DNA from: a virus
Virus record (IMG/VR): IMGVR_UViG_3300045988_147517
Span: 55,186 to 119,185 of that record
Strand: one strand, 5' to 3'
DNA length: 64,000 nucleotides
Each line of letters begins with the position of its first letter. Within the stretch, counting starts at the first letter, position 1. Made by a program: the position numbers and the translations under genes. This document shows, one piece after another, positions 6,864 through 63,200 of the stretch. The notes under the pieces were generated by a model. That model searched no databases, was not told the DNA's origin, and worked only from the letters and a program-made list of their open reading frames with translations.

Positions 6864-8129
6864 TCATTCGCCTTTCATATCATCAAAATTCCAAGCACCA
6901 TAGGCCGGAGTGGATTCAAAAATACCTTCTGGATACTTTTCACCATCTGCAAGTGGAACAATTTTATCAATATATATTTCATTAAATAAAATTCCTGTTT
7001 TATTTAACGCACTAAATGGAGATATATTCATATCGGCTCGTTTATTAACATGCATAAATACAAAAGCCCTGTCTTTGTTACAAGAATATGTTGAATGTGG
7101 CGCGCCAATGATAGAACTCCCATATATGTTATTATAATATTCTCCCTCTTTATATTCAAATGAATTATCATAAAATGATACGTATTTATCCCCATCAATC
7201 TTCACATATTTCACAAATCTTAATGGGAAATTACAAGGTACTTGTTTTTCAATAGCATTGAGTCTTTTTATCATTATATCCCTTTTCGCGCTATCATTAA
7301 AAAAATAAGAACTGTAAAAATTATCGTCGAATAGGACAAACCTTTCCATTATATTGTCATTTTCTACTGTCCAATATATCTGTTTTCCCAAACAATATGA
7401 GACCAATAAATTATAGTTAATACAATATTTTGTGAAAAAATTTATACAATTAGATTGTCCTTGTTTTTCTTCAAATAATTCCATTGCCCTATTAATATCG
7501 AATGGCTCATCCCGAATTTCTTCAAAAATATCTTCCGATTCTTCACCATACATTCCGCCTATTTGCTCAGATAAGGCATCATAACTTTCGATATTTACAT
7601 TTTTCATAGACAATCCTATTTTATATAACGTTGATGTGGGAATACTATATCCTCTCTGCCTGTATTTTTCCATACGTTTTAAAGATGTAAGCGGATAAGG
7701 TGTCTTTACATTATAATTTAGGCATCGTTTAAGATTATCTGCAATAAAATTATCATCTACGATAAATTTATCTTCATCAAAATCATATAGCCCCATATTA
7801 ATAGTAAAATCAAAACTTTCAAAAATACTTTGTGGAGTAGGATACGCCTTTAAAGTAACCACTTGCACCATCTTATTGCCTCCACAATAATCTTTAAAAC
7901 TGATAGCCCTTTTAGAACACACTCTAAAATTCCCACTAGCCCATGATGACCTTAAAAAAGACTCCATATCTTTTTCTGTTTTAAAATATACATCATAGTC
8001 ATTAATCTCGTTTCCAGTATAAACAGAAGTAATAGCGCCACCAGCAATCATTGCATGGTTCAGTTTTAATAAATCATATAAATCGTCACTCATTTCATCA
8101 AATAGAACTTCTTTTTTATCTTTACTCAT
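6864..8129 (-). CDS. hypothetical protein with a Pol-beta-like nucleotidyltransferase signature
   Basis: IAGGAITSVYTGNEINDYDVYF fits hG[GS]-x9-13-DhDh. Start moved to ATG 8129 (GGAGGAA RBS) from track start 8201. Confidence 0.45.
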   Translation of the reverse strand: MSKDKKEVLFDEMSDDLYDLLKLNHAMIAGGAITSVYTGNEINDYDVYFKTEKDMESFLRSSWASGNFRVCSKRAISFKDYCGGNKMVQVVTLKAYPTPQSIFESFDFTINMGLYDFDEDKFIVDDNFIADNLKRCLNYNVKTPYPLTSLKRMEKYRQRGYSIPTSTLYKIGLSMKNVNIESYDALSEQIGGMYGEESEDIFEEIRDEPFDINRAMELFEEKQGQSNCINFFTKYCINYNLLVSYCLGKQIYWTVENDNIMERFVLFDDNFYSSYFFNDSAKRDIMIKRLNAIEKQVPCNFPLRFVKYVKIDGDKYVSFYDNSFEYKEGEYYNNIYGSSIIGAPHSTYSCNKDRAFVFMHVNKRADMNISPFSALNKTGILFNEIYIDKIVPLADGEKYPEGIFESTPAYGAWNFDDMKGE

Positions 8130-9093
8130 CTGCGAGTTCCTCCTCGTCCCCTTCGCACCAAAGGATACTACTTGTAATTTCATCTTGGTAATTTTTATCA
8201 ACCATCTGTACGTAGCGCATCGTCATTTCAACGCTTTGATGCCCTAACATCGTTTGAATATTTTTCACATTCGTACCATGAACAGATTGTAAAGTGGCGG
8301 CAGTACTTCTTAATTTGTGGGGTGTGATATCTTTGGTGATTCCAGCGCGTTCACATACCCGCTTTAATTCTTTTGAAACATTTCTACCATCTACTTTGCC
8401 ACCAGATGTCGATGTAAAAAGATAATTATTATTCCCAGACATGCGTTCTGTTGGAACAATTCTTTCGCCATCTCGATATACGGGGTAACCAAACCTATCA
8501 AGCACTACTTCACCATTTTGTTTAACAATTTCTTTTCTACCGATATAATCATTAATATATCTCTTACATACCCAGTTAATTGGGATATAGCGAAGTTCAT
8601 TACGTTTTGCTTTGCGAATATTAATGCGGCTCTTTTCAAAGTCCACATCTTCTAATTTTAAATCAGTCACTTCGCTAATACGCATTCCTGTATTAATCAT
8701 CAGGTAAAATATTGCCTTTTGGCGCTTTGTTCTACAATTCTTAATAAGTAGTTTTGCTTCACTTTCAGTTAAATAAGTCATTGGTTTAGGTTGAGTTTTA
8801 CGAGAACTAACATGAATATCATGGTCAATATAACCCTCACCATATAAAAAATGAATAAATTTTAACACTGGCGCGGTGTAAGTATTAATTGTGCTATCCG
8901 TAAGTCCATCCTCATCAAGCATAATCCTATATTCTTGAATGTCCTTTTTCTTCAGTGTCTCAATCTGAGTAAAATTCTTAATCCCCATACGGTCGAAAAA
9001 TTTGTTTAAATTTTTTTCATATTCAAAAAGAGTCTTATCAGCGGCACCATCAGCTTTTAAATCCTGAAGAAACAACTTGACTTCTAACATCAT
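8122..9093 (-). CDS. tyrosine recombinase / integrase (XerC/D-like)
   Basis: GMRISEV (Arg), HKLRSTAAT (HxxR), LGHQSVEMTMRYV (His...Tyr). Confidence 0.85.
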   Translation of the reverse strand: MMLEVKLFLQDLKADGAADKTLFEYEKNLNKFFDRMGIKNFTQIETLKKKDIQEYRIMLDEDGLTDSTINTYTAPVLKFIHFLYGEGYIDHDIHVSSRKTQPKPMTYLTESEAKLLIKNCRTKRQKAIFYLMINTGMRISEVTDLKLEDVDFEKSRINIRKAKRNELRYIPINWVCKRYINDYIGRKEIVKQNGEVVLDRFGYPVYRDGERIVPTERMSGNNNYLFTSTSGGKVDGRNVSKELKRVCERAGITKDITPHKLRSTAATLQSVHGTNVKNIQTMLGHQSVEMTMRYVQMVDKNYQDEITSSILWCEGDEEELADE

Positions 9094-24008: not shown

Positions 24009-24046
24009 TTTGTTACCTCGCTTTCAATATTTTCAATTGTGCTTAA

Positions 24047-24075
24047 ATTATGCACGTTTCTAATTGCGCTGTCAA
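24047..24075 (-). promoter_or_regulatory. sigma-A type promoter
   Basis: -35 TTGACA is rc of 24070-24075; 17-nt spacer; TGCATAAT is rc of 24047-24054. Confidence 0.65.
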
Positions 24076-24145
24076 GTAAAATTTTTGCTGTTTAAGAAAT
24101 GTTTTTTTTAGCTCCTTGTATACAAGCGATTATTTTTAAATTGCC

Positions 24146-24203
24146 CTTATATTTATACCTTTAGAAAAAAAGTCCGCTCTAAACGTCAATAAATCGTTTA
24201 CAT
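24146..24203. repeat. conserved noncoding element Y, copy 3 of 3
   Basis: CTTATATTTATACCTTTAGAAA...CAATAAATCGTTTACA. Confidence 0.6.
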
Positions 24204-24354
24204 GAGCCATATGAAAACGCAAATTTTGCGCCCTGACCACTAAAGTTTATTCAGGCTCTCATTATTTAATTTTATAATACGCCTACCGCTTTATGCGCTA
24301 CCACTCTAATTGTTTCGCCATATTCACTTTATTCATTCGTTTTAACAGGTATCC

Positions 24355-24405
24355 TATATCCTTTTCTAAATAAAGTCGCTATATGGTCAAATTTAAACGA
24401 TTACA
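24355..24405. repeat. conserved noncoding element X, copy 3 of 3
   Basis: TATATCCTTTTCTAAATAAAGTCGCTATATGGTCAAATTTAAACGATTACA. Confidence 0.75.
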
Positions 24406-24553
24406 CGCCTATTTATAAAGCGCCATGGCTACAATCTATTCTTATTGAGTTTACTTCAGCGCCATAACCATAATCAGTAAGTGTTCAATTATATTTACTT
24501 GATTCGTTTGCCCTGATTTATTGTACATCATCTAACATTGTTCATAATACCCG

Positions 24554-24751
24554 CCTTTGTTATATCGCTCTAACAATATTCAGTTTGCCTATCTTTGTAA
24601 GTTTGCGCTACCTCTGTTATAGTATCCTTACTTTGTTTATCCCCATGTTCTAAGTTAGTCCCATCTTAATAATTTAGCCCTATATAATTTTATTCAGCTA
24701 TTCTATTTTTGTTTGCGCTTCGCTTACTTTGTTCGTCTCGTCTAACTTTGT
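24554..24751. repeat. array of degenerate ~20-30-nt units each containing CTTTGTT or a close variant
   Basis: CTTTGTT at 24554, 24630, 24726 and 24745; variants CTTTGTA at 24592, CTCTGTT at 24611 and TTTTGTT near 24706; no ORF. Confidence 0.55.
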
Positions 24752-25128
24752 TTAAATCAATTTACAATTTGGTTTTGTTTTAAATTAAAATTAATTTTAT
24801 TTTAATTTTAATAAGGTTGCGCCAAAGACGAGCCTATTCTAGTTTTAAAATGCGCTTTCTATTTAACTTATTATTAGATTGCGCTTTAAATTGTAATCGT
24901 TTGATTTTCGCTTTATAGCTGTTTTATTTTTATTCAGGATATATTATACCTCTGTATTTATAAGCGCCATAACACCCATCTAAATAGTTTATAATAATAT
25001 TTCGCCTATCTAAATTATATTAAAATTATTAATTATATTGTTTTGCTCTATGTTTGTTCTTTGTTCATTGTATTATTGCAAACAAGTGTTCTTGCTCTGC
25101 TTTGTTTGTTTGCTTAATGTATGTTATG

Positions 25129-25220
25129 TATATATGTTTAATGTGTTTATCTATGTATAATGTACTAACATGTATGTATGTGTGTGCTACGTGTGTTATA
25201 TATATATGTTTAATGTGTTT
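25129..25220. repeat. 20-nt perfect direct repeat in a TG-rich low-complexity tract
   Basis: TATATATGTTTAATGTGTTT at 25129-25148 and 25201-25220. Confidence 0.7.
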
Positions 25221-25480
25221 GTTCTCTTGTTATGTATTGTTCTTGTGTGTGTTTAATGAACTGTCAATGTCCATGGACGTGTAAAGCATGTGCTTAAGAG
25301 GATAGATAACATGTTAATGGGTTGTTGTGGTGTGTGTAAAATATTTTTTTTTATTATGGAAAGTATTTTTTTATTTTTAGATTGGTTTAGGTTGATATGG
25401 AAATACTTAAAAAGTTGCTTTCTTTTTACCCTTAAGCAATTTTAACCGTGGTTAATATTAAATTTTTAATTTGTTCAAAT

Positions 25481-25510
25481 TTTAAAGTTTTAAAAAACTA
25501 ACTTTGTTAT
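25481..25510. repeat. inverted-repeat element (copy 3 of 3)
   Basis: TTTAAAGTTTTAAAAAACTAACTTTGTTAT. Confidence 0.6.
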
Positions 25511-25984
25511 CCTGAACTAACAAGTACCTACTAACTATATTTAGTGGGTATCTTTTCAAAACAATAGGTGATATTTTAAGTGTAAAGGATTACACTATCA
25601 CCCCTACTTCTCAACTTTGGTTTTGAAAATTTTCAGAAATCGTTACCATGCACTTTCATTCCAGACCCATATACAAATTTCTACAATTTTTTAACAACCT
25701 TCAACAAAAAAAATAAATTTTAAACACATTACATTAAATTTAAAAAATCTCCTCTAGCGCCATATCACTATATTTAGTTTTTGATAAAAGATGATTTTCT
25801 TAAATTTATCCTCTAATTGACAATTTTGATGAAGATTTGTACACAGACACTTAGCGCAAATTCATCTCCTAAAATTATTAGTAAATAGCCGCATTTTATA
25901 ATCTAAAAAAATATTATCATTTTCTTAAATTATTGTATAAGTTTTTATTATTATTGCATTAAAGTTTTAAATAATCTAGGATTA

Positions 25985-26430
25985 TCATCTTCTGTAGATA
26001 TTTGAAGGAATCTTAAAGACGGCTCTCAGTCTAGCCAGAAAAGCATAGGTGTAGTTACCAAGGACTTTATGATTATGGCGCGGTACGTATAGGGGCAATC
26101 AGGTTTCACTTACTGAGTTCTACCAAGGTCATGAGTGGTGCGTTGTTAAAGTTCGGTAAGTCAAAGAGATTAACTGCAAGGCGTTCATTTTAAGACAAAT
26201 TAAAGGGGCTTTTCACCAAAGTGGAAAGTACCTTTAATTTAATAGGCTTAAAATGATAAGCACCAAAGATAAAAAATTGTCCGTTTGGCTTAGCGGGCTT
26301 TGACCTTGTAGCACCATAGAGGAATGTATTTCCAAAGCCCCTATTTTTTACACACAGATGTGTGCTCCACCCCGCATATGTGCTAGCTTTTAAGGGGTGG
26401 CTCTATAATATATATATTATATAGAGAGAG
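25985..26430. ncRNA. candidate structured RNA or structured DNA region (unclassified)
   Basis: No ORF of 60 aa or more in any frame. Visibly higher GC than the flanks. Nested hairpin 26200-26237; 8-bp stem 26295-26302/26333-26340; hairpin 26351-26364; 7-bp stem 26367-26373/26394-26400; palindrome 26401-26426. Confidence 0.3.
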
Positions 26431-26546
26431 CATTAAAAAAGAGATGATTTAAGCGTTCTACGTAGAGATGTGAAAAAAAAAGATTCTAAAATACACTTTC
26501 TTCGAAACCGTATTTTCTCGTTTCATTTTTACACAAATTTGGCAAG

Positions 26547-26627
26547 TTATCCACAGGGATGTTGATAAGTCTAAAGTTATCCACAGAAGTTATCCACAGG
26601 CTGTTGATAACTAGGCACTTATCCACA
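26547..26627 (+). promoter_or_regulatory. DnaA-box cluster (candidate replication origin)
   Basis: Perfect TTATCCACA at 26547, 26577, 26590 and 26619, all in the same orientation. Inverted one-mismatch boxes TGTTGATAA at 26560 and 26602. Confidence 0.75.
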
Positions 26628-26637
26628 GGTAGCGCAA

Positions 26638-26661
26638 TAAAAAAAAAGGCGTTAAGCCTTT
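26638..26661 (-). terminator. rho-independent terminator of the helicase-like gene
   Basis: Stem AAAGGC/GCCTTT (26645-26650 / 26656-26661) plus a 9-nt T-run on the minus strand. Confidence 0.65.
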
Positions 26662-28001
26662 TTTCGAGATTTATTAAAGTAGCGGGATTTTTGGTAGGGC
26701 ACGTAGGCGATTTCTTCATCGTTGAGCCATTGAGTGAAAAGCGTTCGCATACGCAGGGATGGAATGTAGAGGTAAATTTCTTCATTATTTCTTATGGCGC
26801 TTCTCCATACCCATTGAACCATATCAGCCAGCGCGAATTTATCTTGGTCGACGGCAATATTTCTAATTGAAAAAAGTTGTTTAATAAAAGGGTTCATGTA
26901 GCGGTTTACCATGTAGGCGCAATGTGTGCGGTTTCCATATTCGTTTGTCGCTTTAGCATTGAGTGGAACAAAAGCCCTTCTACTAATGCGCGCTGGCTTC
27001 ACTTGCTTATTAAAAGATTTAAAGGTGGTATACATTCGTTGTTTTGGTGGCGCGCTTCTCAGAAAATTAAAGATACATCGGCTTACATCCTCAAGTTCCT
27101 CTGGATGTGAGGCATACCAATTATTACTAAGCGTACTGGAGAACTCCTGATTATTATTTGCTACATAAGGTCGACCAATTTCATTAAGGCTATCACTCTG
27201 GCAAATGTGGATAAGCGGTTTTACATTTTTCTTCCATTCTCTCTCATAGTCTTGGTTAATGGTTGGAACAAAACAATATTGTCCATTTTGGCGCTCTGTG
27301 TGATAATATTCATATGTTATATCATAGAAGCGATAATAGTATGCCTGCATTTGATGTTCAAACATGTAGGTAAGGATAAAAACGTCATTAAAAATATCCT
27401 CTTCGAAAACCTGTACGGGGAACGACCAAAATAAGGCACTATCATTAATATAGTAGAGCAGTCCATTATCGGCCAAATGTTTCATGTGTTGGTAGCGTGA
27501 TAAATCAGCCCATTCTTCTTTTGACCAATTCACTTGAAAATCTGGGTCGATAGATACATATCCTTTGCGAATAAAAGATGCCATATCCTTTATTGTATGA
27601 AGTTGCCTTTCTCTTTCGGTGAAGTTGGATTCGGAATACTTACATAAGTCATATTCATTAATAACGTTTATGACCTCGTCTAGAAATAAGATATAATTCC
27701 CACCTCTTAAGATATCGAGCAACTCTTTGTCTACATAAGAAAAGAGCGCATGTGTACAGACGATATTTTCTCCTTTTGCAAGTAGCGCTTTTAGGTGCCT
27801 TCCCTTGGTTCCAAATTCTTCCTCAGATGGTTGAACAAAATTCTTTGATTCACATTCTTTTATAACCCTATCACATTCGGTTAGGAATGGTGTTACAAAC
27901 ATAATATTGGTATCATTCCCTAACATATTAATATGATGAATGGCGGCACTTGTTTTGCCGCTACCCATCGGAGAGTCAACAACTTTAATTCTTCTTTTCA
28001 T
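26652..28001 (-). CDS. P-loop NTPase, SF2-helicase-like (candidate replication initiator or helicase)
   Basis: Walker A SPMGSGKTS, Walker B LFLDEV, motif-VI-like VWRSAIRN. Confidence 0.6.
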   Translation of the reverse strand: MKRRIKVVDSPMGSGKTSAAIHHINMLGNDTNIMFVTPFLTECDRVIKECESKNFVQPSEEEFGTKGRHLKALLAKGENIVCTHALFSYVDKELLDILRGGNYILFLDEVINVINEYDLCKYSESNFTERERQLHTIKDMASFIRKGYVSIDPDFQVNWSKEEWADLSRYQHMKHLADNGLLYYINDSALFWSFPVQVFEEDIFNDVFILTYMFEHQMQAYYYRFYDITYEYYHTERQNGQYCFVPTINQDYEREWKKNVKPLIHICQSDSLNEIGRPYVANNNQEFSSTLSNNWYASHPEELEDVSRCIFNFLRSAPPKQRMYTTFKSFNKQVKPARISRRAFVPLNAKATNEYGNRTHCAYMVNRYMNPFIKQLFSIRNIAVDQDKFALADMVQWVWRSAIRNNEEIYLYIPSLRMRTLFTQWLNDEEIAYVPYQKSRYFNKSRKKA

Positions 28002-28035: not shown

Positions 28036-28064
28036 ATCTTATCATACCACTGACGCTTTGTCAA
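28036..28064 (-). promoter_or_regulatory. weaker sigma-A type promoter for the helicase-like gene
   Basis: -35 TTGACA is rc of 28059-28064; 17-nt spacer; -10 TAAGAT. Confidence 0.45.
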
Positions 28065-28086
28065 GTTTAATTTCTTGCAATGGGGC

Positions 28087-28115
28087 TTGACATTTAATTA
28101 AATCTGTGCTATAAT
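28087..28115 (+). promoter_or_regulatory. sigma-A type promoter opening the rightward arm (divergent from 28036-28064)
   Basis: TTGACA at 28087-28092; 17-nt spacer; TGcTATAAT ending at 28115. Confidence 0.75.
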
Positions 28116-28506: not shown

Positions 28507-28743
28507 ATGTTTTTTGGTATTGGAAGTTTACCCTTTTGGCTATGCGGCCTACCTATTTTAGTTGGATTGTTTTTTATAGCATGTGCTAACCCAGAAAAAT
28601 ATATTTATCCACATGTTATAAAACACGAAGAGAGAAAGCGCAATTCATCGCCTTCACCTTATAATTCGGGAGAGGGAATTATGATTGTATGTGTTTTAGC
28701 TTGTGCTTTTATTTTAATCTATATATTGAAGTTATGGTGGTAG
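28507..28743 (+). CDS. small membrane protein
   Basis: 78-aa ORF with two hydrophobic segments; GAGAGG RBS. Confidence 0.55.
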   Translation: MFFGIGSLPFWLCGLPILVGLFFIACANPEKYIYPHVIKHEERKRNSSPSPYNSGEGIMIVCVLACAFILIYILKLWW

Positions 28744-28744
28744 A

Positions 28745-30691
28745 ATGAAGAATCGACAATTTTATATAGTAAAACTAAATAGTTCTGATTTAAAGTATTT
28801 CAAATATACTTTAGAGGGGGATTTTGATATTTTTAAAAAGCGCGACCAGATAGCCGCGGTGGCAGATAGTCAGACATTAAGGTTGATTAGAGAACTTACA
28901 AATAAAGATGTAGACTTGGAAGAGATTGAGAAGTTATACAAAAAAAGAGATTGGCTCAAAAAACAGGAGAGCACACAGGCCGCTTCAAATGAAATTGCTT
29001 TTTTGCAACGTAAGATTAATAACGCTATGTTTATTCCAGAATATGTCACAGTCACCATGAGTGGAAATAAACAATATGAGTATTTGTTCGAAAAAGGATT
29101 TGAGCTTATTATAGATGGTAGGCGCATTCATTATAAGCGATTGTCATGTTCGGCAGGGCAGGCTCGTGTTTCTACTGTTGTATTCTGTGATAGTAATATT
29201 ATTGATGAATTGGAGCGTCGATTAAACAACGGACGTGATATGAACTTTAAGATAGCGCCATCTAAATTCAATGCATACTTTGGATTATATACTTCCGCAA
29301 CTAAAGTAGTTAGCGAGCCTAACTTTTGTGTTGTGCCAGACTATGAAAATAATTTGGATGTAGAGGTAAATTATGTAACTGAAACGGATTATGATTCGGA
29401 CGATTTAATTGATACGCGAACCGTCAACTTAGGGTTTAACCGAACTGATGGGATGGGGCTAATAAATTATGAACGCGCCTCTAAATGGGCAGAAGAGTTA
29501 GGGCTAGATTATGTTCCGGCCCAATTTTGCATACGACAATCATTTATTAAGGGAATGTTGTGCACCTTTCCCATTCAAGAGTTTTGTGAGCTTGTTAATT
29601 ATGGTAATTATATCACAAAAGATATTTATGGCGCTGAAATAGATTTGAGGGACTATGATGTTATTTTAACGGAGAGCCAATTTAAATTGTGGGGTGCTTA
29701 TCCAAATCTTGATTATTACAAAGAATGTTGCCATAAAAATAATCTTAAATGGGGTGTAGCTATTTATACCCCTAAGCATGATAAAGATATTATCAAGATG
29801 AACTATCAATTTCTACAAACATTAGATTTATCAGACGAAGATATTGAAAATTTATGCTCAATGTTTGTTAATTGGATTCAGGGTGTAACTTGTGACAACT
29901 TAGGATACACGCTCCTCTATTTAATTGGAGAGGGTAAAACTGAAGAAGAAGTTCGGGCCTACATGCGTAGCCCGGATAACTATTGGATTAAATCTTTAAT
30001 TATGGAGCCGGAGTTAATTAAAGATAGGTATATCAAACAGAAGATATATCGCCTAATTAAAAAGCGCATTCAAGACGGTTGCCTAGGAGAGATTATTTTA
30101 AATGGCAACTTTCAGGTACTCGTAAGCGACCCATTTGGATTTATGCAACATGTATGCGGGTTAGAGCCAACTGGGTTACTTGGCGCTGATGAGTATTACT
30201 CTAACTATTGGAATGAGCGGGATGTAAAAGTGGTGGATGGTATGCGTTCCCCCTTGACATATCGCTCCGAACATGTTAAAATGAAGTTAGTGAGAAACAG
30301 CCGTATAGATTATTGGTATCGTTATATGTATACGGGCGTTGTTCTTAATTACCATGGACACGATGTAATGTGTTTTGGTGGCGCGGATTTTGATTATGAT
30401 ATTTTAGCCACTACTGATTGTCCAGAGGTGGTTAATGGTATATATCCAAATGAGTTACCTGTCTATTATGAGCCACCCAAACCAGCGAAGATAGTGCCTA
30501 CAAAAGAGGATTTGTTTAAATCAGACACATTCAGTTTTGGTTCTATCATTGGTAGCATTACAAATAAAGGTTCTAGCGGATATGCATTACTTTCCGACAT
30601 TGAATATATGTATGGGAAGAATAGTATAGAGTATGTTACTACGCTAAATAGATTAAAAATGTCTTGCAAGTTACAGAGCGCGCAAATTGAT
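28745..30691 (+). CDS. YonO/RdRP-like single-subunit RNA polymerase, exon 1
   Basis: VVDGMRSPLTYRSEH ... FGGADFDYDIL resembles the RnPxxHpgD ... GGDxDGD catalytic-barrel signature of QDE-1/RDR/YonO-type polymerases. The exon ends ...SAQID at a U, followed by an in-frame TAA at the start of the intron. Confidence 0.65.
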
Positions 30692-30965
30692 TAATGTTGG
30701 TCACTTCATAGGGAAACCTATGTCGAAACGTGGTGAACACTCAGAGAGTGGGTATACATATATTGTATGCTATCGGGGAAAGCTAAAGCCATAAGGTATG
30801 CCAATCCCGAGCCGAACACCTATTGGAGGTGGAGGTGTAACGACTATCCGCAAGGAGTAGCGCCATAGCGATATGGTGGCGAAGTGCCACGCCCCTAACG
30901 TAAAGCCGAGGGTGAAGATATAGTCTAGTCCCCTAACAAATATCGGGAAACCGAGGGTATGAACG
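30692..30965 (+). mobile_element. group I intron (274 nt, no ORF)
   Basis: Contains the canonical core GAAGATATAGTC and AACGACTATCCG; ends in G. Splicing joins ...SAQID to KAKIGREVKG... in frame. Confidence 0.75.
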
Positions 30966-31799
30966 AAAGCGAAAATAGGAAGAGAAGTAAAAGGAATTCC
31001 TAAAATATGGGTCAAACGCCAGAAAATAGAAGATGACGACGATGAACAAACGATTAAATATAAGGAGCGGATGAATTATTTATGTCTAGACAGGCATCCT
31101 TATTTTTTTATATATCGTTATGCTGATACCAGAAAGAAATATCGCAAGCACATTGACACTTATCAACATTGGTGCAAGACTTCATTTAGATTGTCTCTAG
31201 AGGAATTATTTAAGGTAGAAAATAAGACACAGCAACAAAAGGATTTTTTAGCTGGATATTTCCGTTATATGCCTGTTATTGATAGCAATAGTACGATGAA
31301 TCGTATTTGCCATTATATTGAAGGGTTGAATATGAATGTACGTAGCCACCTTAAAGTAAAAGAAGGGCACGACATGCATAAATTATTTATGCCTGATAAT
31401 ATTGAATGGAATGAAGAGCGCTACAATAATGTGGTAGAAGCCTATAAGCGTTATTGCAAGGAGTGCACAAAAATGAATTCTCTTGGCGCTTCTAATTTTG
31501 ATTTTGAGACAACGAAGGATTATGATTTTTACGCTTCTATGTTTATAGGAATGTTGTATTCCTATGTCAATGAGGTATGCAGTAATGTGTACGAAGCCAT
31601 TACATATTTGGCGCATTATATGTATGTGGAAAAAGATAGCGCCAATAAGGAAATGCTATGGCAAACATATGGGTATGAAATATATAGTATGATTAAGGAA
31701 AGAAATAGCGGTTACATTATGTTTCCACTAGAAGATGAAGATGGTGATATAGAGTATTTAAATAAAAGGTATTCTATGCAGGAGGTTTGTATTGATTGA
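30966..31799 (+). CDS. YonO/RdRP-like RNA polymerase, exon 2
   Basis: The frame is open from 30963. The junction restores QID-KAKIG, similar to the (A/S)xDxxKxG motif downstream of DxDGD in RdRP-type enzymes. Confidence 0.6.
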   Translation, partial: KAKIGREVKGIPKIWVKRQKIEDDDDEQTIKYKERMNYLCLDRHPYFFIYRYADTRKKYRKHIDTYQHWCKTSFRLSLEELFKVENKTQQQKDFLAGYFRYMPVIDSNSTMNRICHYIEGLNMNVRSHLKVKEGHDMHKLFMPDNIEWNEERYNNVVEAYKRYCKECTKMNSLGASNFDFETTKDYDFYASMFIGMLYSYVNEVCSNVYEAITYLAHYMYVEKDSANKEMLWQTYGYEIYSMIKERNSGYIMFPLEDEDGDIEYLNKRYSMQEVCID

Positions 31800-46705: not shown

Positions 46706-48325
46706 ATGGAGAATGAAAAGATGAGGCTAGATTTTTCGCTAGATACTATTGAAATTCTCAAACAAGACCCCGATTGCATGATGGTGCGGTTAGCATTACT
46801 ACATGAGGGTGTCAATAGAAATAACTGTGATATTTCTCATGAAGCAGTATTGAAGTCAATTCCAACCATATTTAACAAACCAATTGTATACCGATTAAAT
46901 AATAAATATTTTCCATTGGATTCTACAGATGTATTGGAGCATTCGAGAGAAGAAGATACCACGATGATGCAAGCTGGTATCATTCCAGAATCGGCTCCAA
47001 TGGAATTTGTTGAAAGAAATGGTAAAGTATACCTTGAAACAGTGGGAGTAATTCATAAGATTTATAATCCTACTTTAACCGATATCTTGCATCGACGCAA
47101 TGGAAATATGAAAGTTTCTATAGAAATTAAAGTTCCTGCGGGTGAGAGAGATATTAATGGCATTTTAAAAGTTGACGAGTTCATATTCTTGTCAGTATGC
47201 TTACTTTCGGAAGAAACTATAGAAGGTATCGAGGGGAGTAATTTGATTGTTACTAAGTTCTCAAGTGAAGAATATAATAAAAAATATATGGAATTAATGC
47301 ATGGTGGGGAAAGTTCACTGCTCAATACAATTAAAGCGAATGCTAATAACGCCGCCAACTATATGATAGAAGGAAGTGAAAAAGCAATCGTGGAAAATTT
47401 TGCAAAAGATTATGGTACTGGCTCTGCTTTAAAGGTGGATAAATCTAAAGATGCTATGTCTGATAAGGCATGGGGGAGTGTGGATAAAACCACACTTCGA
47501 AATAGAATCTTAGAAGCTTCTAATTATAAGAGTTTAGTAAACGATGTGTACTTAGTGGTTGAAAGTGGATGGGAAGAAGCGCCATCTAGCAAACTTAAGT
47601 ACCCGGTAATGTGTATTGAGGGCGATAAGCTCGTGTACAATCGTGGAGGTTTAGCTAGTGCGTTAGGCTATGCAAAGGCCGAAAACAATAGTGAAGCTAC
47701 ACGAAAGGCCGAAAGCCTATATAGAAAATTAGACTTAGGGGAGGATACAAAAAAAATGGCAGAAGAATTAAAGAATAAGATTGATAAGGGCAATAGAAAC
47801 ATCGAAGATATCAGAGATGATGCAGATGCTCAAGAAGATGATGTAAAAGAAAAAATTAGAAAAAATCGTATTGAACCAGACGACAAAGGTCGTGAAGGGT
47901 TAGAAGACGATGTTGACGCTGATAAAGATTATTGGAAAAAGAAAGCCAATGCTTTAGAAGTTGAAAAATGCGCGCTGGAAGAAAAGGTTCGCAAGTATGA
48001 ACGCGAAAAAGAAGTTGATGAAATGAAACATGCTTTAGAAAAATGCGCTCATATTTTTACTGACGAAGAAAAGATGGCTCTAGAAAAAGAAATGGCAAAA
48101 TGCTCTAAGGAAGAATTTGAACTGAAATTAGGGAATGCCGCTATTGATTTTGCCGCTAAGATGGCTAAAGAAGATGAAGAAAAGAAAATGGCAGAAGACA
48201 AGAAAGAATTTACTCTTGGATTTAGCTATGGTCTTCCGTTAGAACCATTCTCAGCACCTAGACAGGCAGGTAGTTCACCTAAATCTTTAGATGAATTATT
48301 TAATAGCTATGAATTAAGAAAATAA
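46706..48325 (+). CDS. putative prohead protease / scaffolding fusion protein
   Basis: Position upstream of the capsid gene; long E/K-rich coiled-coil C-terminal half. The protease assignment is weak. Confidence 0.4.
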   Translation: MENEKMRLDFSLDTIEILKQDPDCMMVRLALLHEGVNRNNCDISHEAVLKSIPTIFNKPIVYRLNNKYFPLDSTDVLEHSREEDTTMMQAGIIPESAPMEFVERNGKVYLETVGVIHKIYNPTLTDILHRRNGNMKVSIEIKVPAGERDINGILKVDEFIFLSVCLLSEETIEGIEGSNLIVTKFSSEEYNKKYMELMHGGESSLLNTIKANANNAANYMIEGSEKAIVENFAKDYGTGSALKVDKSKDAMSDKAWGSVDKTTLRNRILEASNYKSLVNDVYLVVESGWEEAPSSKLKYPVMCIEGDKLVYNRGGLASALGYAKAENNSEATRKAESLYRKLDLGEDTKKMAEELKNKIDKGNRNIEDIRDDADAQEDDVKEKIRKNRIEPDDKGREGLEDDVDADKDYWKKKANALEVEKCALEEKVRKYEREKEVDEMKHALEKCAHIFTDEEKMALEKEMAKCSKEEFELKLGNAAIDFAAKMAKEDEEKKMAEDKKEFTLGFSYGLPLEPFSAPRQAGSSPKSLDELFNSYELRK

Positions 48326-54110: not shown

Positions 54111-55187
54111 ATGGCTGGAAGATATGTTGGAGAAGCGTTAGTATCTGTTGCTGATGTAAAAATGCTGGATACAAAAACCGGAGTTGAAATCGGTGAAGCT
54201 ATTGCTCTGACAAGTTCAGGTATTGAATCGACTACTCAAAATGTTGAAGTTAGTGGTGGTTTCTTAAACTCCCTGCTTTTCGATATTCGTTTTGGTAGAC
54301 GTGTAAACCTGACTCTTGAAAGTGCAACATTTAAAATGGAATACTTGGCGTTTCAAACAGGTACAGTTATCAGCAGAGCAGTACGTAATGTATATGAATT
54401 TAATGATTGTCAAACAGCGGCAACTGAAACACTTACATTAAAACATACTCCTACTGATAAAGTACACGTTGTTTATGATGATGGTAACGTAGAAGATTTA
54501 AGCGCCACTGCTAATACTATTACTATTCCTACAAAATATGTAGGAACTCAGGTAATGGCAAGTTACTACTATGGTGGTGAATTTGAAAACATCACCGTTG
54601 ATGCAACCACCGAACCTATGACTGTTACACTTTTAATGAATATTAGAAGTAGAAAACAAAATGGTACTACAGGGACTTATCAAGTTTCTATTCCATTATT
54701 TAAGTTTGATGGTAACTTTAACTTAACATTTACATCAGACGGTGTTTCTGCTATGTCTATTGCTGGTAGTTCTCTTGCTTATACTCAGGATTGTGGTAAG
54801 ATGAAATATTGCGACTGGACATATATTCCTGATGACCCAGATACTTATGTACCAGCAGAAATTATTGCTGTACCAAGCAAGTATTCACTCTCAGTTGGAC
54901 AGAAAGTTACCCCATACGTTGTTGGTGTACGTAATCCACCTTACGCAAATGTTACATTGACTGAAAATCTAACTTTTGCTACTGACCATAGTGAAATTGC
55001 AGATGTATCTACTCCGGGTGGTGTTATTACAGCGGTTGCTCCGGGCAACGCAGTTATCACTGTAACCTATACACCTCCTGTTGCAGGAGAAGACCCAAGA
55101 ATTACTACAATTGCAGTTACTGTTGCTGGCGCTTCAAGTGCTAGTGAAGTTGGCTTAGCAAAAGTAGGAGAAGCGAAAGTTAAATAA
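54111..55187 (+). CDS. major tail (tube) protein with C-terminal Ig-like (Big_2-type) domain
   Basis: Position; C-terminal ...LSVGQKVTPYVVG...ADVSTPGGVITAVAPGNAVITVTY is a typical Big_2 pattern. Confidence 0.55.
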   Translation: MAGRYVGEALVSVADVKMLDTKTGVEIGEAIALTSSGIESTTQNVEVSGGFLNSLLFDIRFGRRVNLTLESATFKMEYLAFQTGTVISRAVRNVYEFNDCQTAATETLTLKHTPTDKVHVVYDDGNVEDLSATANTITIPTKYVGTQVMASYYYGGEFENITVDATTEPMTVTLLMNIRSRKQNGTTGTYQVSIPLFKFDGNFNLTFTSDGVSAMSIAGSSLAYTQDCGKMKYCDWTYIPDDPDTYVPAEIIAVPSKYSLSVGQKVTPYVVGVRNPPYANVTLTENLTFATDHSEIADVSTPGGVITAVAPGNAVITVTYTPPVAGEDPRITTIAVTVAGASSASEVGLAKVGEAKVK

Positions 55188-59179: not shown

Positions 59180-59938
59180 ATGGCTATAAGTAGAGAGTAT
59201 AAGGTTAAGATAAAGGCTACTGTTGACCCTAGTGAAATTTCTAAACAAATAGAGGCCTTAAGTAAAAATAGTAAAATAAAATTTGATACTGGCGGTATTG
59301 ATGCGGTTGGTAAAAGTGTTGGAAATACGAGCAAACAAGTTAAAGGATTAGGAACTCTAGTAGATGGAGTGTTTGGAAAATTTAACTTATGGTATGGAAT
59401 TGCTCAACTTTCTCACCAAATCTATAGTGCAATTGGAGACGTTGTAACCAATACGATAAAACTAGATACTGCAATGACAGGTTTAGCAAAAGTAAGCGAT
59501 ATGTCAAAACAGGATTTAACAGCGTTTGCTAAATCTGCTGGCGAAGCAGGGGTTGAAATAGGAAAAACAACAACTCAGATGATTGACGCGGCTACAGTGT
59601 TTGCACAGGCTGGATGGAGTGACCCGGGCGAATTGCAACAACTCGCCACTATGGCTGGTATGTTTACTAATATCGCAGACACTCAGACGAGTACGGCAGA
59701 ATCCGCAGAATTTTTAATTGCTACTATGAAGGCATTTAATTTGACAGCCGATGACACAGAGCATATTATTGATGCGGTTAATGAAGTATCAAATAAATAC
59801 GCAGTAAGTTCGGGTGACCTTGCATCATCTGTTGGTAGAGTTGCTTCTACACTTGCTATTTCTGGTACAACGCTAGAACAGACCTTAGGGTTAATGACCG
59901 GGGCGACAGAGATTGTCAGAAATCCGGGAAAAGTGGCT
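59180..59938 (+). CDS. tail tape measure protein, exon 1
   Basis: Typical TMP N-terminal region; ends ...RNPGKVA, followed by an in-frame TAA at the start of the intron. Confidence 0.7.
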
Positions 59939-60241
59939 TAATTTTAGGTCGGATATATGGTAACATATATTCAAAAACACTCTAATTGACGGGAAACCCC
60001 TTAGAGCTTTATCAACCAACCTATGATGGTGACATACATAGGGGCTTGACGTAATGGTTAAGGTATGGTAAAATAGATAAAGATTGGGCAATCCGCAACC
60101 AAGCATCTCAATGAGATGAAGGCTCAACGACTATCCGAGAGGAGTACATATCAAGTGATGTGGAAATGGGTGTCCCCTCACATGAGGGTGAAGATATAGT
60201 CTAGTCCCCTAACAAATATCGGGAAACCGAGGGTAGAAACG
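59939..60241 (+). mobile_element. group I intron (303 nt, no ORF), paralogue of 30692-30965
   Basis: A 52-nt block at 60184-60235 is identical to 30908-30959 (GAGGGTGAAGATATAGTCTAGTCCCCTAACAAATATCGGGAAACCGAGGGTA). It shares AACGACTATCCG, the 5' TAAT start and the 3' AACG end. Confidence 0.75.
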
Positions 60242-63200
60242 AATGGTTTAAAAACAATTTCATTGAGGTTACAAGGAATGACAGAGGCCGCTGATGGTTC
60301 GGTAGAATCAGTGGATGGCTTGTCATCAAAAATGCAAGAAGAATTTAGTCAAATTGGTGTAAGTATAACAGATGCTAACGGTCAAATTCGAAGCACTTAC
60401 GATATATTAACTGATATAGGTGCACAATGGCCAAACCTAACACAGAATCAGAAAGCATATTACGCAGAATTGGCCGCGGGCAAAAACCAAGCGAACATTT
60501 TTATTGCGTTAATGGATAATATCGGCACCGCTGTAGCCGCTACAGCAACAGCTTATGATAGCGCTGGTTCTGCCGCAGAAGAAAATGCTAAACGAATGGA
60601 CTCTATTCAAGGTCATATTGAAAAATTTCAAGCCGCATGGGAAAAGTTTACGACATCTTTTGCCGACAGTGATTTAATAAAGAATATTATTGATATGGGA
60701 ACTGCGCTAGTTGAATTTGGAACTACTGATACCGGGAAAGCCGTACTTGGCTTAACGGCTATCACTGGTGCTTTTATAAAACTTAAATCTGTGTTTTCTG
60801 GGATAAAAGCTTTGTCGTCCGGCACATCATTACTTGAATCTTTATTTGGCGCTGGTAGTGCCGTTTCAACTGCTAAGAATGCAGAAAAAGCTATTGAAGG
60901 TGTTGGCAAGACAGCAAAGAATACTATGAGAGATGCCGCTGATGCGGGAGATACACTTTTTGACGTATTTGCTAATATTAGAAGAGGTGCAGACAATTCA
61001 GGAAAAGCGGTAGAGAGTGTAGCGGGTAATACGAAGAACTTAGCAAAAGCCGCTGGTGAAACCGCAGAAGAAGTTGCTAAAGTAGGAGCAGAGTCTACAA
61101 AAGCGGCTACAAGTGGTGGAATGCTTTCGAAAGCATTAACTGCTATAGGCGGCCCTACAACTTTAGCTATTGGCGCGTCTGTTTTAGCTATTGGTGGCAT
61201 GGTTTATGCAATGGATAGGGCATCAAAGGCCGCTGGCGAACATCAAGATGCTTTGGTTGAAGATGCTCAAAATACAAAAAAAGCATACGATAATACAACA
61301 AAAGCAATTGAAACAAACGATAAAAGAATCGCTCAGTTAAAAGAAACTATTGCGGGGATTCAAGAAAAGGGAGAATTGACCCTTGTTGATGAACAAAATT
61401 TAAAAAATGCTCAACGTGAATTATCACAGTTAGAATTACAACAAGATGGTTTACGAAAAAAACAAAAGCGTCAGCAAGAAGAGAATCAAAGGGCAAATGA
61501 GAGGGCTTTAAAGGAAACTTCTAAGATTAGTGCTTTTAGTGGGCTTGGTTCTTTAACCGGAAAAGATGTGACTATTCCTCAAGAAGCTGATGAAATTATC
61601 AAAGCAATGAGTCAACTTCAAGCATCTTGGACTGAGACGGGAGAAATTGGGAAAAGAGTTAATGAGGGAACCTTTAAAAAACAACAGGAAGAACTTGAGA
61701 ATACTCGCCAACGTATGATTGAATTACGGGAAGGGTTTGAAGTTGGAAGTGAAGGATACGATTTGCTTACTTCTAAAATTTCTAACATAGATAATTATTT
61801 AGATAGAACCGCTCCTCTCATGGAAAGAAACGTAGAAGCCGCAAAGAAATATGGAAACGCTTTAGTCCAAATGGGAGATGAATCGAAATCCGTAAAAGAT
61901 ATTGCAACCAATTTAAACGACCTCACTTCTGCTCATGCGTCTGGCGTACTAAGCACTGAAAATTATATATCAGAACTTAGAAATGGAATAGACCTAATGG
62001 CTTCAACAACTGAAGTAGCGGGATACAAGATAAAAGATATCTTGAATATGTCTGACCGAGAATTTCAAAACTTATCTTCATCTGAACGTGAACAAGTTCT
62101 TGCGGCACAAACTGCGTGGACTATGTATTCAGACACCTTACAGACAACATTAGAAAATGCTCAGGTTGCATATGATTCGACTGGAGAAAGTGGCGTAGAA
62201 AGTTTCAACACTATAAATGATTCAGCTAGAGCGGCACTGGATGTTATTACTGAACAAGAGGGGTTAACAGGAAGTATCGAAGAAGGTTGGTCTGGTGGTA
62301 GCCAAGCCGCTAGAGATTACGCAAATAATTTAAGTAATGTTATTCGAGAAATGGATAGTCTTAGTGGCGCTCAAGATTTGGTGTCTGAAAGCTCAGACTT
62401 AATGCATCAAATCATGTCCGATAATATCAATGGAATGAGTACCGAAGTATGGGAAGGAACAGAAGCAGGAAAACAAGCTTTGGCGGATTTTAGTGCTGGC
62501 GCACAGACTAGTTTACAAGAATTACAAGATAGTAATGATACTGCTTGGCAAACATTTAAATCTACTATTGAAGAAAGCACAAGTGGTGCATACGATGCTC
62601 TTATTGACGAAAATGGAAGGCTACGTGATGACATTCAACTAACAGGCGACCAATCTGTAGATGTTTTTAGTGCTTTACAAAGTTTGCTAGAGAGCAATGT
62701 TCCCGGAGCCGCTGAGTTTGCGGCGGGTGCTTTGGCTACAATTGGTCAGACCGCTACAGATAATACTGCTCATCAAGATGCTTTGAATAATTCTATTCAG
62801 TCAACTGGTAGTATGTCAGAGTCTGCGGCAAGTGTCTCTACTGGTGCATGGGGTGGAACAGCCGCCGCTGTTGATAATACTAAAAACAAAACTGGATTAT
62901 TGGGCGGTGCATTTAGTACGGCTGGTTCACAAGGTAGTAGTGCTGGTACTAATATTGCTGGAAAATTTGGAGAAGCTTCTGGTCAAATTGATGGCGCAAA
63001 AGGTAGTACAGACCAACTATCTGGTTCTATGCAAGGTGTTGGTTCTAGTGCTGATGGCGCAAAAGGTAGCGTTGGTGGATTATCTGATGCTATTAATGCC
63101 GTTCCAAGATTTGTTGAAGTCGTCTTTAATGTTGTACAAAATGTAACAAAAAGTATAAAAGAAGTTTTCTCTGGTCAAAAAGCAACTGGCGATGACTATA

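Follow-up and report, generated by a model that had tools for sequence, protein, structure and literature searches.

Clusters of binding sites (boxes) for the bacterial initiator DnaA are already known outside the chromosomal origin, oriC, and also on T5 and on P1-type replicons. In P1 oriR, RK2 oriV and pBR322, accessory DnaA boxes beside an AT-rich region assist an element-specific initiation, and they are needed to an extent that depends on the host or lineage. In the case of pBR322, transcription of a long structured primer RNA proceeds towards the origin, and a DnaA box follows downstream. This study revealed an unusually strong array of DnaA boxes in the SPβ-like phages, a group whose replication is unstudied and for which no origin is known (PMC8270828). 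The array was found at positions 26544 to 26628 of a stretch of 64,000 nucleotides, hereafter referred to as the window, which corresponds to positions 55,186 to 119,185 of IMG/VR virus record IMGVR_UViG_3300045988_147517, and it marks a short region, at approximately 26.3-26.7 kb, in an abundant gut phage. Less expected was the recurrence of such arrays in unrelated phages.

In Bacillus subtilis, the eight sites that are stably bound by DnaA are exactly those with a value A, derived from box affinity and spacing, of more than 0.3 (Ishikawa et al. 2007, PMC2533591). The highest A on that chromosome is 1.64, and the two halves of oriC reach 0.94 and 0.68 (PMC2533591). With regard to phages, the untranslated injection-stop (iss) region of every T5-like phage contains about eight boxes, TTATCCACA and TTATCAACA, arranged as pairs with a 3-bp separation; these boxes are far from the mapped origins, which were reported to lie in the middle of the genome, and their role in DNA entry is an untested proposal (Davison, bioRxiv 10.1101/866236). 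That preprint is the only discussion of such phage arrays that was found in the literature. The replication origin of SPβ has never been mapped (PMC8270828), and our literature search on it retrieved nothing relevant. The window is assigned to an SPβ-like phage because its predicted products include a YonO-type single-subunit RNA polymerase, encoded divergently from yonV, and a MrpR/YopR-like repressor.

The DnaA-box array and the gene-free gap

The array (26544-26628, + strand) consists of two tandem 42-bp units, as delimited by Tandem Repeats Finder, each with boxes in forward-reverse-forward order. Four perfect boxes TTATCCACA occupy 26547-26555, 26577-26585, 26590-26598 and 26619-26627 on the + strand, and two variant boxes TTATCAACA, which read TGTTGATAA on the + strand, occupy 26560-26568 and 26602-26610 on the - strand. 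The six boxes span 81 bp, with spacers of 4, 8, 4, 3 and 8 nt between neighbours. A G follows each of the four perfect boxes, three of which show the extended sequence GTTATCCACAG, which was also confirmed at R1 and R4 of the Escherichia coli oriC. The initial annotation of this stretch had listed the four perfect boxes in the same orientation, each followed by G, and two inverted boxes with one mismatch at 26560 and 26602, and it proved exact in every coordinate and sequence. In the 64-kb window, TTATCCACA occurs seven times, whereas 100 dinucleotide-preserving shuffles contained 0.67 copies on average and at most 3; of the seven perfect boxes, four belong to the 81-bp array and two more lie within 2 kb of it (27206 and 28605). 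These shuffle statistics, together with the conservation described below, rule out a chance origin of the cluster.

Three weaker boxes match the relaxed consensus TTWTNCACA (W = A or T), which was taken from the Clostridioides origin literature, perfectly. One, TTTTACACA, is located at 26527-26535 (+), 11 nt to the left of the array; another, TTTTTCACA, at 26469-26477 (-), between the array and an AT-rich core; and the third, again TTTTACACA, at 26346-26354 (+), on the far side of that core, which is consequently flanked by boxes. These three boxes belong to the region and widen it to 26346-26627, with nine boxes in total. Within the 500 bp that follow the yonV-like gene, seven perfect matches to TTWTNCACA were found, as opposed to the 0.15 predicted from the rest of the locus.

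The A value was calculated by dividing the summed affinity of four successive boxes by their mean gap, using boxes with no more than one mismatch to TTATNCACA and the gap definition (d) reproduced from the published table (PMC2533591). The three overlapping four-box sets of the array gave A values of 2.17, 2.05 and 1.67, all of which exceed 0.3 on a metric that is calibrated on B. subtilis, which may not be the host of the phage. The highest value is above that of all the B. subtilis chromosomal sites in the same study (PMC2533591), and four of the array boxes are of the highest-affinity type. From its sequence, the array is almost certainly a DnaA-binding site. On the B. subtilis calibration, it is predicted to hold DnaA more stably than the oriC of that species does; host DnaA would bind this phage region more strongly than a bacterial origin.

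The array is kept in all seven genomes of the clade (the window and the relatives designated L003, L124 and L155-L158), with identical boxes and identical spacing. L124, which shows 90.2% identity over 25900-26720, is the only usefully diverged member, and the argument for selection is based on this one lineage. In L124, the array carries two substitutions in 81 bp, both of them in spacers; the 54 positions of the array boxes and the 27 positions of the three weaker boxes are all unchanged, and in the adjacent segment (26350-26546) approximately 21% of the columns are variable. At the regional rate of 9.8%, the chance of observing 81 unchanged positions in this single diverged lineage is, by simple arithmetic, about 2 in 10,000. 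The sequence comparison therefore indicates that the boxes are under purifying selection. Predicted DnaA-type boxes are also found at the same position in a second, separated clade, and are missing in the rest. This clade, L130, is the most distant syntenic one, with a YonV that is 46% identical, and the 500 bp that follow its yonV contain five perfect TTWTNCACA boxes, against an expectation of 0.03. These five boxes (TTTTGCACA twice, TTATACACA once and TTTTACACA twice) represent all but one of the six TTWTNCACA boxes of its 17-kb locus. The motif TTTACACA occurs six times in L130:9300-9720, three copies being in the TTTTACACA or TTATACACA form and one standing directly after the (TA)n core; this motif may represent either a weak DnaA box or a site recognised by a phage protein.

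Isolated boxes were identified elsewhere in the window. A lone perfect TTATCCACA at 28605-28613 (+), 140 bp upstream of the yonO-like start codon, is kept throughout the clade, including L124. Another, at 27206-27214 (-), is inside the yonV-like gene, and is present in six genomes and absent in L124. At 47434-47487 (-), a perfect TTATCCACA and one TTATCCACC stand 45 bp apart inside the late gene 46706-48325, probably by chance.

The array is located in a gene-free gap of approximately 2.6 kb (24009-26651), which extends from the yonV-like gene to the first early gene. yonV is kept in six sister clades, in SPβ and in MMB025, and the gap also only in the six clades; after yonV, every syntenic relative was found to have a gap of 2.3-2.6 kb. 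Three blocks of the gap (24023-24423, 24612-24955 and 25376-25663) are conserved between clades, and the 1 kb nearest yonV (25663-26650), which bears the array, is specific to the window clade. No homologues of this 1-kb segment were found in phage or plasmid collections, and its capture from a plasmid replicon could thus not be shown.

The gap is also the place where the strand asymmetry of the window switches. The cumulative GC skew of the 64-kb window has its minimum at approximately 25 kb, the skew being negative before and positive after this point. The switch coincides with a switch in gene orientation and is by itself therefore of little weight; the two gene arms diverge from the gap. 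In the co-oriented genes, the coding-strand GC skew is positive in all cases, ranging from 0.04 to 0.44. As two counter-oriented genes, yonV (-0.008, and -0.17 at third codon positions) and 60628-61200 (-0.205), lack a positive coding-strand skew, the asymmetry is partly independent of the direction of transcription, a statement based on these two genes. The switch lies between 23.6 and 26.65 kb, inside the gap, and has the polarity expected of an origin.

The least stable duplex of the region is a (TA)n-rich palindromic core at 26404-26430 (83% A+T), which is a candidate unwinding element or, alternatively, a promoter element. It is invariant in the clade alignment even though its flanks diverge. 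The weak boxes are 50 and 39 bp away on its two sides, and the dense array is 117 bp away. The core is found 166-236 bp past the yonV stop in the window clade, L004, L161, L162 and L128, and 395 bp past it in L130. No (TA)4+ run follows yonV in the L125 and L126 clades, where L126 shows only an A/T-only run at +188. Upstream of the core, a G+C-richer segment at 25985-26405 (+ strand) is a candidate structured RNA of approximately 420 nt, which would be read towards the core and the array. Its folding compared with shuffles gave z = -3.78 on the + strand and z = -2.93 on the - strand, and 127 consensus pairs were obtained across three genomes, with 2 compensatory pairs and many G-U pairs that are valid only on the + strand. 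This segment matched no Rfam family, and one chance miRNA-level match was the only hit to known RNA families within 24.0-28.2 kb; it may be a new structured RNA, as the folding models suggest. At the 3' end of the yonV-like gene (26642-26664), a hairpin with an A-tract, a GGC stem and a T-tract resembles a bidirectional terminator, with 9-10 bp and approximately -10 kcal/mol on both strands. The cluster had initially been placed just past the terminator of the neighbouring gene and next to AT-rich DNA and a structured segment; the hairpin, which a simple terminator scan did not call, does stand between the gene and the boxes, and the (TA)n palindrome and the 25985-26405 segment correspond to the other two elements.

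Several further observations concern the gap. The best-conserved non-coding block of the gap, 25553-25662, shows 79-88% identity in all syntenic clades, including the one with 46% YonV identity, and contains a long nested hairpin (25553-25629). The density of GCGC reaches 11 per kb at 24100-25000, compared with approximately 3 elsewhere, and GCGC is part of a recurring motif, AGCGCCAT(A/G)(A/G)C, at 24419, 24458, 24963 and 25756, with similar TAGCGC motifs in sister clades. By analogy with the repeated element of SPβ, these motifs may be operator sites for a MrpR/YopR-like repressor. A GT-rich low-complexity tract with 72-bp repeats (25040-25400) is followed by a CA-rich tract (25590-25750); in Lactococcus phage WRP3 (L132:3020-3900) and in the L012-group contigs, the DnaA boxes are likewise flanked by comparable tracts. 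A physical genome end in the gap was considered and judged less likely. Three contigs (L155, L156 and L128; 69-116 kb) end 1.3-2.6 kb past yonV; given that other contigs end elsewhere and that the 1-kb segment is clade-specific, these ends are probably assembly breaks caused by strain variation.

Similar box arrangements in bacteria, plasmids and other phages

One genome per bacterial species was scanned for the triad TTATCCACA-N3/4-TTATCCACA-N3/4-TGTTGATAA, which yielded 12 loci where essentially none is expected by chance. The triad was found in the dnaA-dnaN spacer of a Clostridia genome (locus L140), with a further box 9 nt on and an A of 2.17, and just upstream of dnaA in two Defluviitaleaceae genomes. 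Another locus is upstream of dnaG, and three are near rpsF-ssb in Ligilactobacillus, beside a bidirectional terminator. The triad therefore appears, from its locations, to be used both in real origins and in other chromosomal DnaA sites. The oriC modules of the Clostridia and Defluviitaleaceae genomes resemble the phage array in the order, orientation and spacing (within 1 nt) of their boxes, and in the further box 8-9 nt beyond. In contrast, the phage array has no dnaA or dnaN nearby, no DnaA-trio was found beside it, its AT core is 117 bp off, and it shares no homology with these modules beyond the boxes.

The B. subtilis clusters likewise comprise at least four tightly packed boxes, including TTATCCACA, and pass the same A criterion, and one of them, gcp-ydiF, is a stable DnaA site between convergent 3' ends (PMC2533591). 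They are, however, chromosomal, and the phage array, for which binding is a prediction, surpasses all eight sites in density and in the number of perfect boxes. With regard to E. coli, the DARS1 core, as read from MG1655, is TTATCCACT-N5-TGTGGATAA-N3-TGTGTATTA, that is, three boxes of which two are co-oriented and one is opposed. The phage boxes at 26577 (forward), 26590 (forward) and 26602 (reverse) have the same topology when read on the other strand. Nevertheless, they are separated by 3 and 4 bp, as opposed to the 5 bp (I-II) and 3 bp (II-III) of DARS1, the phage array comprises six boxes in two units, and DARS activity is known only from E. coli and its close relatives.

The plasmid origins offer another likeness. 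In pBR322, the order is RNA, then AT core, then boxes, as in the phage region, where the RNA and its role are hypothetical. Unlike these plasmid origins, the phage array has no iterons and no initiator (Rep) gene that could be found next to it, and no partition genes were seen, in a search that was not exhaustive.

Among phages, T5 has in common with the window opposed pairs of TTATCCACA and TTATCAACA separated by 3 bp and located in a long untranslated stretch of a phage genome of more than 100 kb, with a function that is predicted in both; the pairs of the window are 4 and 3 bp apart and stand in the 2.6-kb gene-free gap. The T5 boxes differ in being part of a terminal repeat, family-wide and far from the origins, whereas the boxes of the SPβ-like phages are limited to two clades. 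The pac site of SPβ maps near yonP-yonR (PMC8270828), which corresponds by synteny to a spot 1.5-2 kb from the array. A near-identical core is found in the Lactococcus 949-group phages, as illustrated by WRP3 (KM677185, at approximately 14.5 kb), which has TTATCCACA-gag-TTATCCACA-tgt-TGTTAATAA-g-TTATTCACA in a 1.5-kb unannotated gap with GT-rich and CA-rich tracts. Like the window, this is a large phage of a Firmicute; unlike it, the array is between convergent gene blocks, and the phages are unrelated, with no shared genes detected. A description of this array was not found in the searchable papers on 949-group non-coding regions.

When viral contigs were scanned for opposed pairs, at least 119 contigs were retrieved, some of which contain 9-21 boxes in a few hundred bp. 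A BLAST search with the array as query yielded matches in 76 cultured-phage records, for the most part in DNA without annotation. Inside its terminal repeat, the T5-like phage PR1 contains an identical 22-mer, TTATCCACAGAAGTTATCCACA. Berlinvirus A7 (Shigella phage A7, MK685668, T7-like) has 10 boxes in its first 150 bp (L137 22-147) and matches at two places of the record, which suggests a terminal repeat. In Microbacterium phage Casend and Arthrobacter phage Liebe, the boxes are 34-366 bp from the left end of the record, and matches are also present in Streptomyces phages such as Karimac. In a second low-GC lineage, the L012 group, which has a gene for a YonO-like polymerase, two box triads occupy a gap flanked by convergent genes. 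The presence of near-identical arrays in the non-coding DNA of many unrelated phages suggests a general and unexplored interaction between phages and DnaA. Besides that of A7, extreme arrays comprise 21 boxes, 14 of them perfect, in approximately 340 bp of a 129-kb viral contig, and nine boxes nearly back to back in another contig (the loci of such arrays being L063:1814-2152, L076 and L022:7522-7608); no description of these phage arrays was found in the literature.

A proposed accessory origin module and its alternatives

We consider the array to be an accessory, host-adapted module of a phage origin that recruits DnaA, a reading to which we assign a probability of roughly 0.4. It is favoured because boxes recur at the same spot in L130, because the conserved weak boxes bracket the (TA)n core, because the switch in strand asymmetry falls within the gap, and because the architecture matches that of real oriC modules. 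As in an oriC-type origin, the region combines a DnaA-box cluster (nine boxes in 26346-26627) with a switch in strand composition (minimum at approximately 25 kb, with two genes bearing on its independence of orientation). We infer that DnaA binds within the central non-coding gap and that this gap is the replication-origin and control region of the phage family, where unwinding may also take place.

In the mechanism that we propose, DnaA would bind the four consensus boxes and then extend, by cooperative binding, to both TTATCAACA boxes and to the three weaker TTWTNCACA ones. The resulting complex would span 26346-26627 and bracket the (TA)n core at 26404-26430, and the bound DnaA could help to open the core or to load the helicase. 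The array would then supplement an origin whose firing in other clades does not require DnaA, much as DnaA boxes do in some plasmid origins with their own initiator. If DnaA does assist initiation, a phage with its own replisome would adapt to its host by adding or dropping initiator sites.

Several observations weigh against this proposal. The six sister clades with 59-64% YonV identity (L004, L161, L162/163, L125, L126/127 and L128) have only 0-1 boxes after yonV, no perfect TTATCCACA and no A above 0.05 were found in the 127 of 134 kb of SPβ that were scanned, and MMB025 has no box cluster after yonV. The boxes are thus not conserved in relatives with a common replication system. A search of the corresponding position in the sister clades for iterons or other repeat arrays gave no convincing candidate. 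SPβ itself has genes for a helicase and a polymerase of its own. The candidate unwinding element, the (TA)n core, is 50 and 39 bp from weak boxes and 117 bp from the dense array, which it does not abut. A DnaA-trio array, defined as more than three repeats of 3'-[G/A]A[T/A]-5' after a GC cluster and next to a box, was not found near the boxes, where only 3-unit poly-A runs are present, one of which is the terminator A-tract, whose length varies between genomes. The mixed box orientation, with opposed pairs, resembles DARS or the T5 iss more than a track for a one-directional DnaA filament. The skew argument rests on two genes, one of which (60628-61200) is probably an intron-borne endonuclease gene, and the binding criterion is calibrated on B. 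subtilis, which may not be the host of the phage. Finally, look-alike arrays stand at places that are not origins, namely the terminal repeats of T5- and T7-like phages and convergent junctions in the 949 group, Streptomyces phages and L012-group contigs.

Given that most relatives have no array and that SPβ-type phages encode their own helicase and polymerase, the array is not the core origin determinant of the family, and the absence of boxes from most relatives implies that DnaA is not its core initiator and is dispensable for the family. The host-DnaA-dependent origin that had been suggested initially therefore stands only in part. The selected boxes, the high A, the position in the gap, the skew minimum, the box-flanked (TA)n core and the oriC-like triad speak for an origin that involves DnaA; the lack of a cluster in the sister clades, SPβ and MMB025, the lack of a DnaA-trio and of an unwinding element abutting the dense array, and the look-alikes in terminal repeats speak against it. 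A plasmid-like or prophage lifestyle had also been proposed. The MrpR/YopR-like repressor lends weak support to the second part, as it points to a temperate phage, whereas no plasmid functions were seen in a search that was not exhaustive.

The array could instead be a sink or modulator of DnaA without any role in phage initiation, like the B. subtilis clusters or the datA and DARS sites of E. coli; we regard this as possible but somewhat unlikely. As the phage DNA accumulates, hundreds of high-affinity boxes would sequester DnaA or alter its nucleotide state, thereby shutting down or deregulating host initiation and the DnaA regulon to the benefit of the phage, which would amount to a takeover of the host cell cycle without a protein. 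Moriya and colleagues reportedly found that the DnaA-box regions of the B. subtilis oriC, when present in multicopy (inc), inhibit chromosomal initiation. The A value is above that of any B. subtilis titration site, the 42-bp tandem duplication is the outcome expected from selection for capacity, and dense arrays, with 9-21 boxes, are present in numerous viral contigs as well as in virulent phages for which DnaA is not needed. The limitation to a few lineages and the location directly after a terminator, in a hypervariable 1-kb segment, are moron-like features that would suit a sink, as would the placement of the gcp-ydiF site between convergent 3' ends and the forward/forward/reverse triad, which has the DARS1 core topology on the other strand. 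A sink is, however, position-free in principle, yet the boxes recur at the same place in L130 and bracket a conserved (TA)n core, and the three weak boxes, which add little capacity, are conserved. The DARS spacing is also different (5 and 3 nt, as opposed to 3 and 4 nt in the phage), and we know of no DARS-like function in Firmicutes. Whatever the selected function, titration of DnaA would be a physical consequence at high phage copy number, if DnaA binds. A DnaA-dependent transcriptional element appears unlikely. It would act as a roadblock between the yonV transcript and the convergent structured RNA, or it would couple to the replication status of the host the expression of that RNA or, through the box at 28605, of the yonO operon. 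DnaA is a proven activator and repressor at B. subtilis box clusters (sda, ywlC and yydA; PMC2533591), the array is exactly between the converging candidate RNA 25985-26405 (+) and yonV (-), beside a weak bidirectional hairpin, the arrays of WRP3, Karimac and the L012 group stand where genes converge, and a lone perfect box is conserved 140 bp upstream of yonO. Against this, no sigma-A promoter with a match of at least 9/12 overlaps or adjoins the array in a position that DnaA could regulate; the sole such match in 26300-26700 (9/12, + strand, 26463-26492) is approximately 55 bp to the left of the dense array, and promoter-like matches are no more frequent in the region than in its shuffles. 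Six boxes exceed what a roadblock needs, and the structured RNA is only a candidate.

It is very unlikely that the array acts like the T5 iss, capturing membrane-associated DnaA as the DNA enters and thus pausing or anchoring the DNA or protecting its end. In T5-like phages, a large untranslated region does contain 8 boxes of the same two kinds (TTATCCACA and TTATCAACA), paired at a distance of 3 bp, the 22-mer TTATCCACAGAAGTTATCCACA is identical in the terminal repeat of PR1, the boxes of A7, Casend and Liebe are near record ends, and the counterpart of the SPβ pac region is 1.5-2 kb away. The T5 mechanism is itself only a proposal, though, and SPβ-like phages are thought to package by a headful mechanism (PMC8270828), contig ends among the relatives are at no consistent position, and the boxes are absent from most sister clades. 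Least credible of all is a neutral passenger, that is, a fragment of a bacterial oriC or DnaA-box cluster that was captured by recombination and has not yet decayed. The variable 1-kb segment, without a detectable homologue in phage and plasmid collections, and the near-identical triads in bacterial chromosomes would agree with such a capture. However, none of the 81 box positions is substituted in L124, which has diverged by about 10% overall and by about 21% in the adjacent non-coding DNA, the two units of the internal duplication have stayed in register, and the phage is abundant, its YonV sequence being present on 86 contigs.

A bolder version of the accessory-module reading joins two proposals which, taken together, we consider doubtful. 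The region would be the first definable origin of an SPβ-like phage and would be ColE1-like, with an RNA of approximately 420 nt running into the (TA)n core and box-bound DnaA loading the helicase. At the same time, triads and opposed pairs 3 bp apart would be a common means, essentially undescribed so far, by which phages capture the host initiator, and would have arisen repeatedly in T5-like, T7-like and 949-group phages, in actinophages and in two YonO-encoding lineages.

Neighbouring genes and other features of the window

The gene next to the array (26652-28001, - strand) encodes a YonV-family protein of 449 amino acids, with an N-terminal P-loop/SF2-like ATPase and a YonV_C domain (PF27199); it belongs to PHROG 2467 and shows 33-37% identity to SPβ-group YonV. 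The YonV homologues carry DEAD and ResIII (SF2 helicase) Pfam hits, in agreement with the SF2-helicase-like gene noted initially. A weak Herpes_ori_bp match of the window YonV covers the Walker A region only, and an origin-binding protein was consequently not called. YonV had no match among the PDB sequences, its relatives were not found in species genomes or JGI metagenomes, so that the host was not identified by that route, and a literature search on yonV yielded nothing relevant.

Divergent sigma-A-type promoters are located at 28036-28115, with TTGACA-17-TATAAT and an upstream TG directed rightwards to yonO, and TTGACA-17-TAAGAT directed leftwards into yonV. Across these promoters from yonV is the yonO-type RNA polymerase gene, followed by the late genes, and the order of yonO and yonV is the same as in SPβ. 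All named YonO relatives are from Bacillota. The yonO-like gene of the window is split by approximately 376 bp into open reading frames (ORFs) at 28745-30694 (649 amino acids) and 31071-31799 (242 amino acids). It is a single ORF of 921-927 amino acids in L124, L125, L126, L161 and L162, and is split as in the window in L130 and L155-L158. The split may be an insertion or an intron; a search of Rfam at this position found nothing.

To the left of the gene-free gap, all genes are directed leftward, including those for a DnaJ-domain protein, the MrpR/YopR-like repressor of tyrosine-recombinase fold and a Gad2-like protein. The product of 8122-9093 (-) resembles a tyrosine integrase; as identical relatives carry an MrpR_C_cat domain, it is more likely, judging from these domain matches, to be an SPβ-type master repressor than an integrase. 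Next to it, a 445-amino-acid ORF (6864-8201, -) is the counterpart of a Gad2 (anti-Gabija) family protein in relatives.

No close DNA relatives of the region were found among cultured phages. The exact YonV sequence of the window occurs on 86 metagenomic contigs of up to 119 kb, and the phage is a common and abundant gut phage. Some of its relatives were recovered from samples with the label GAIO21, possibly pig gut. A group I intron (59929-60224; Rfam, 65 bits) adjoins the counter-oriented 190-amino-acid ORF 60628-61200. One 119-kb contig of the same phage breaks at about the position of the intron (near 60.6 kb), which suggests that this element is present in some strains and absent in others.

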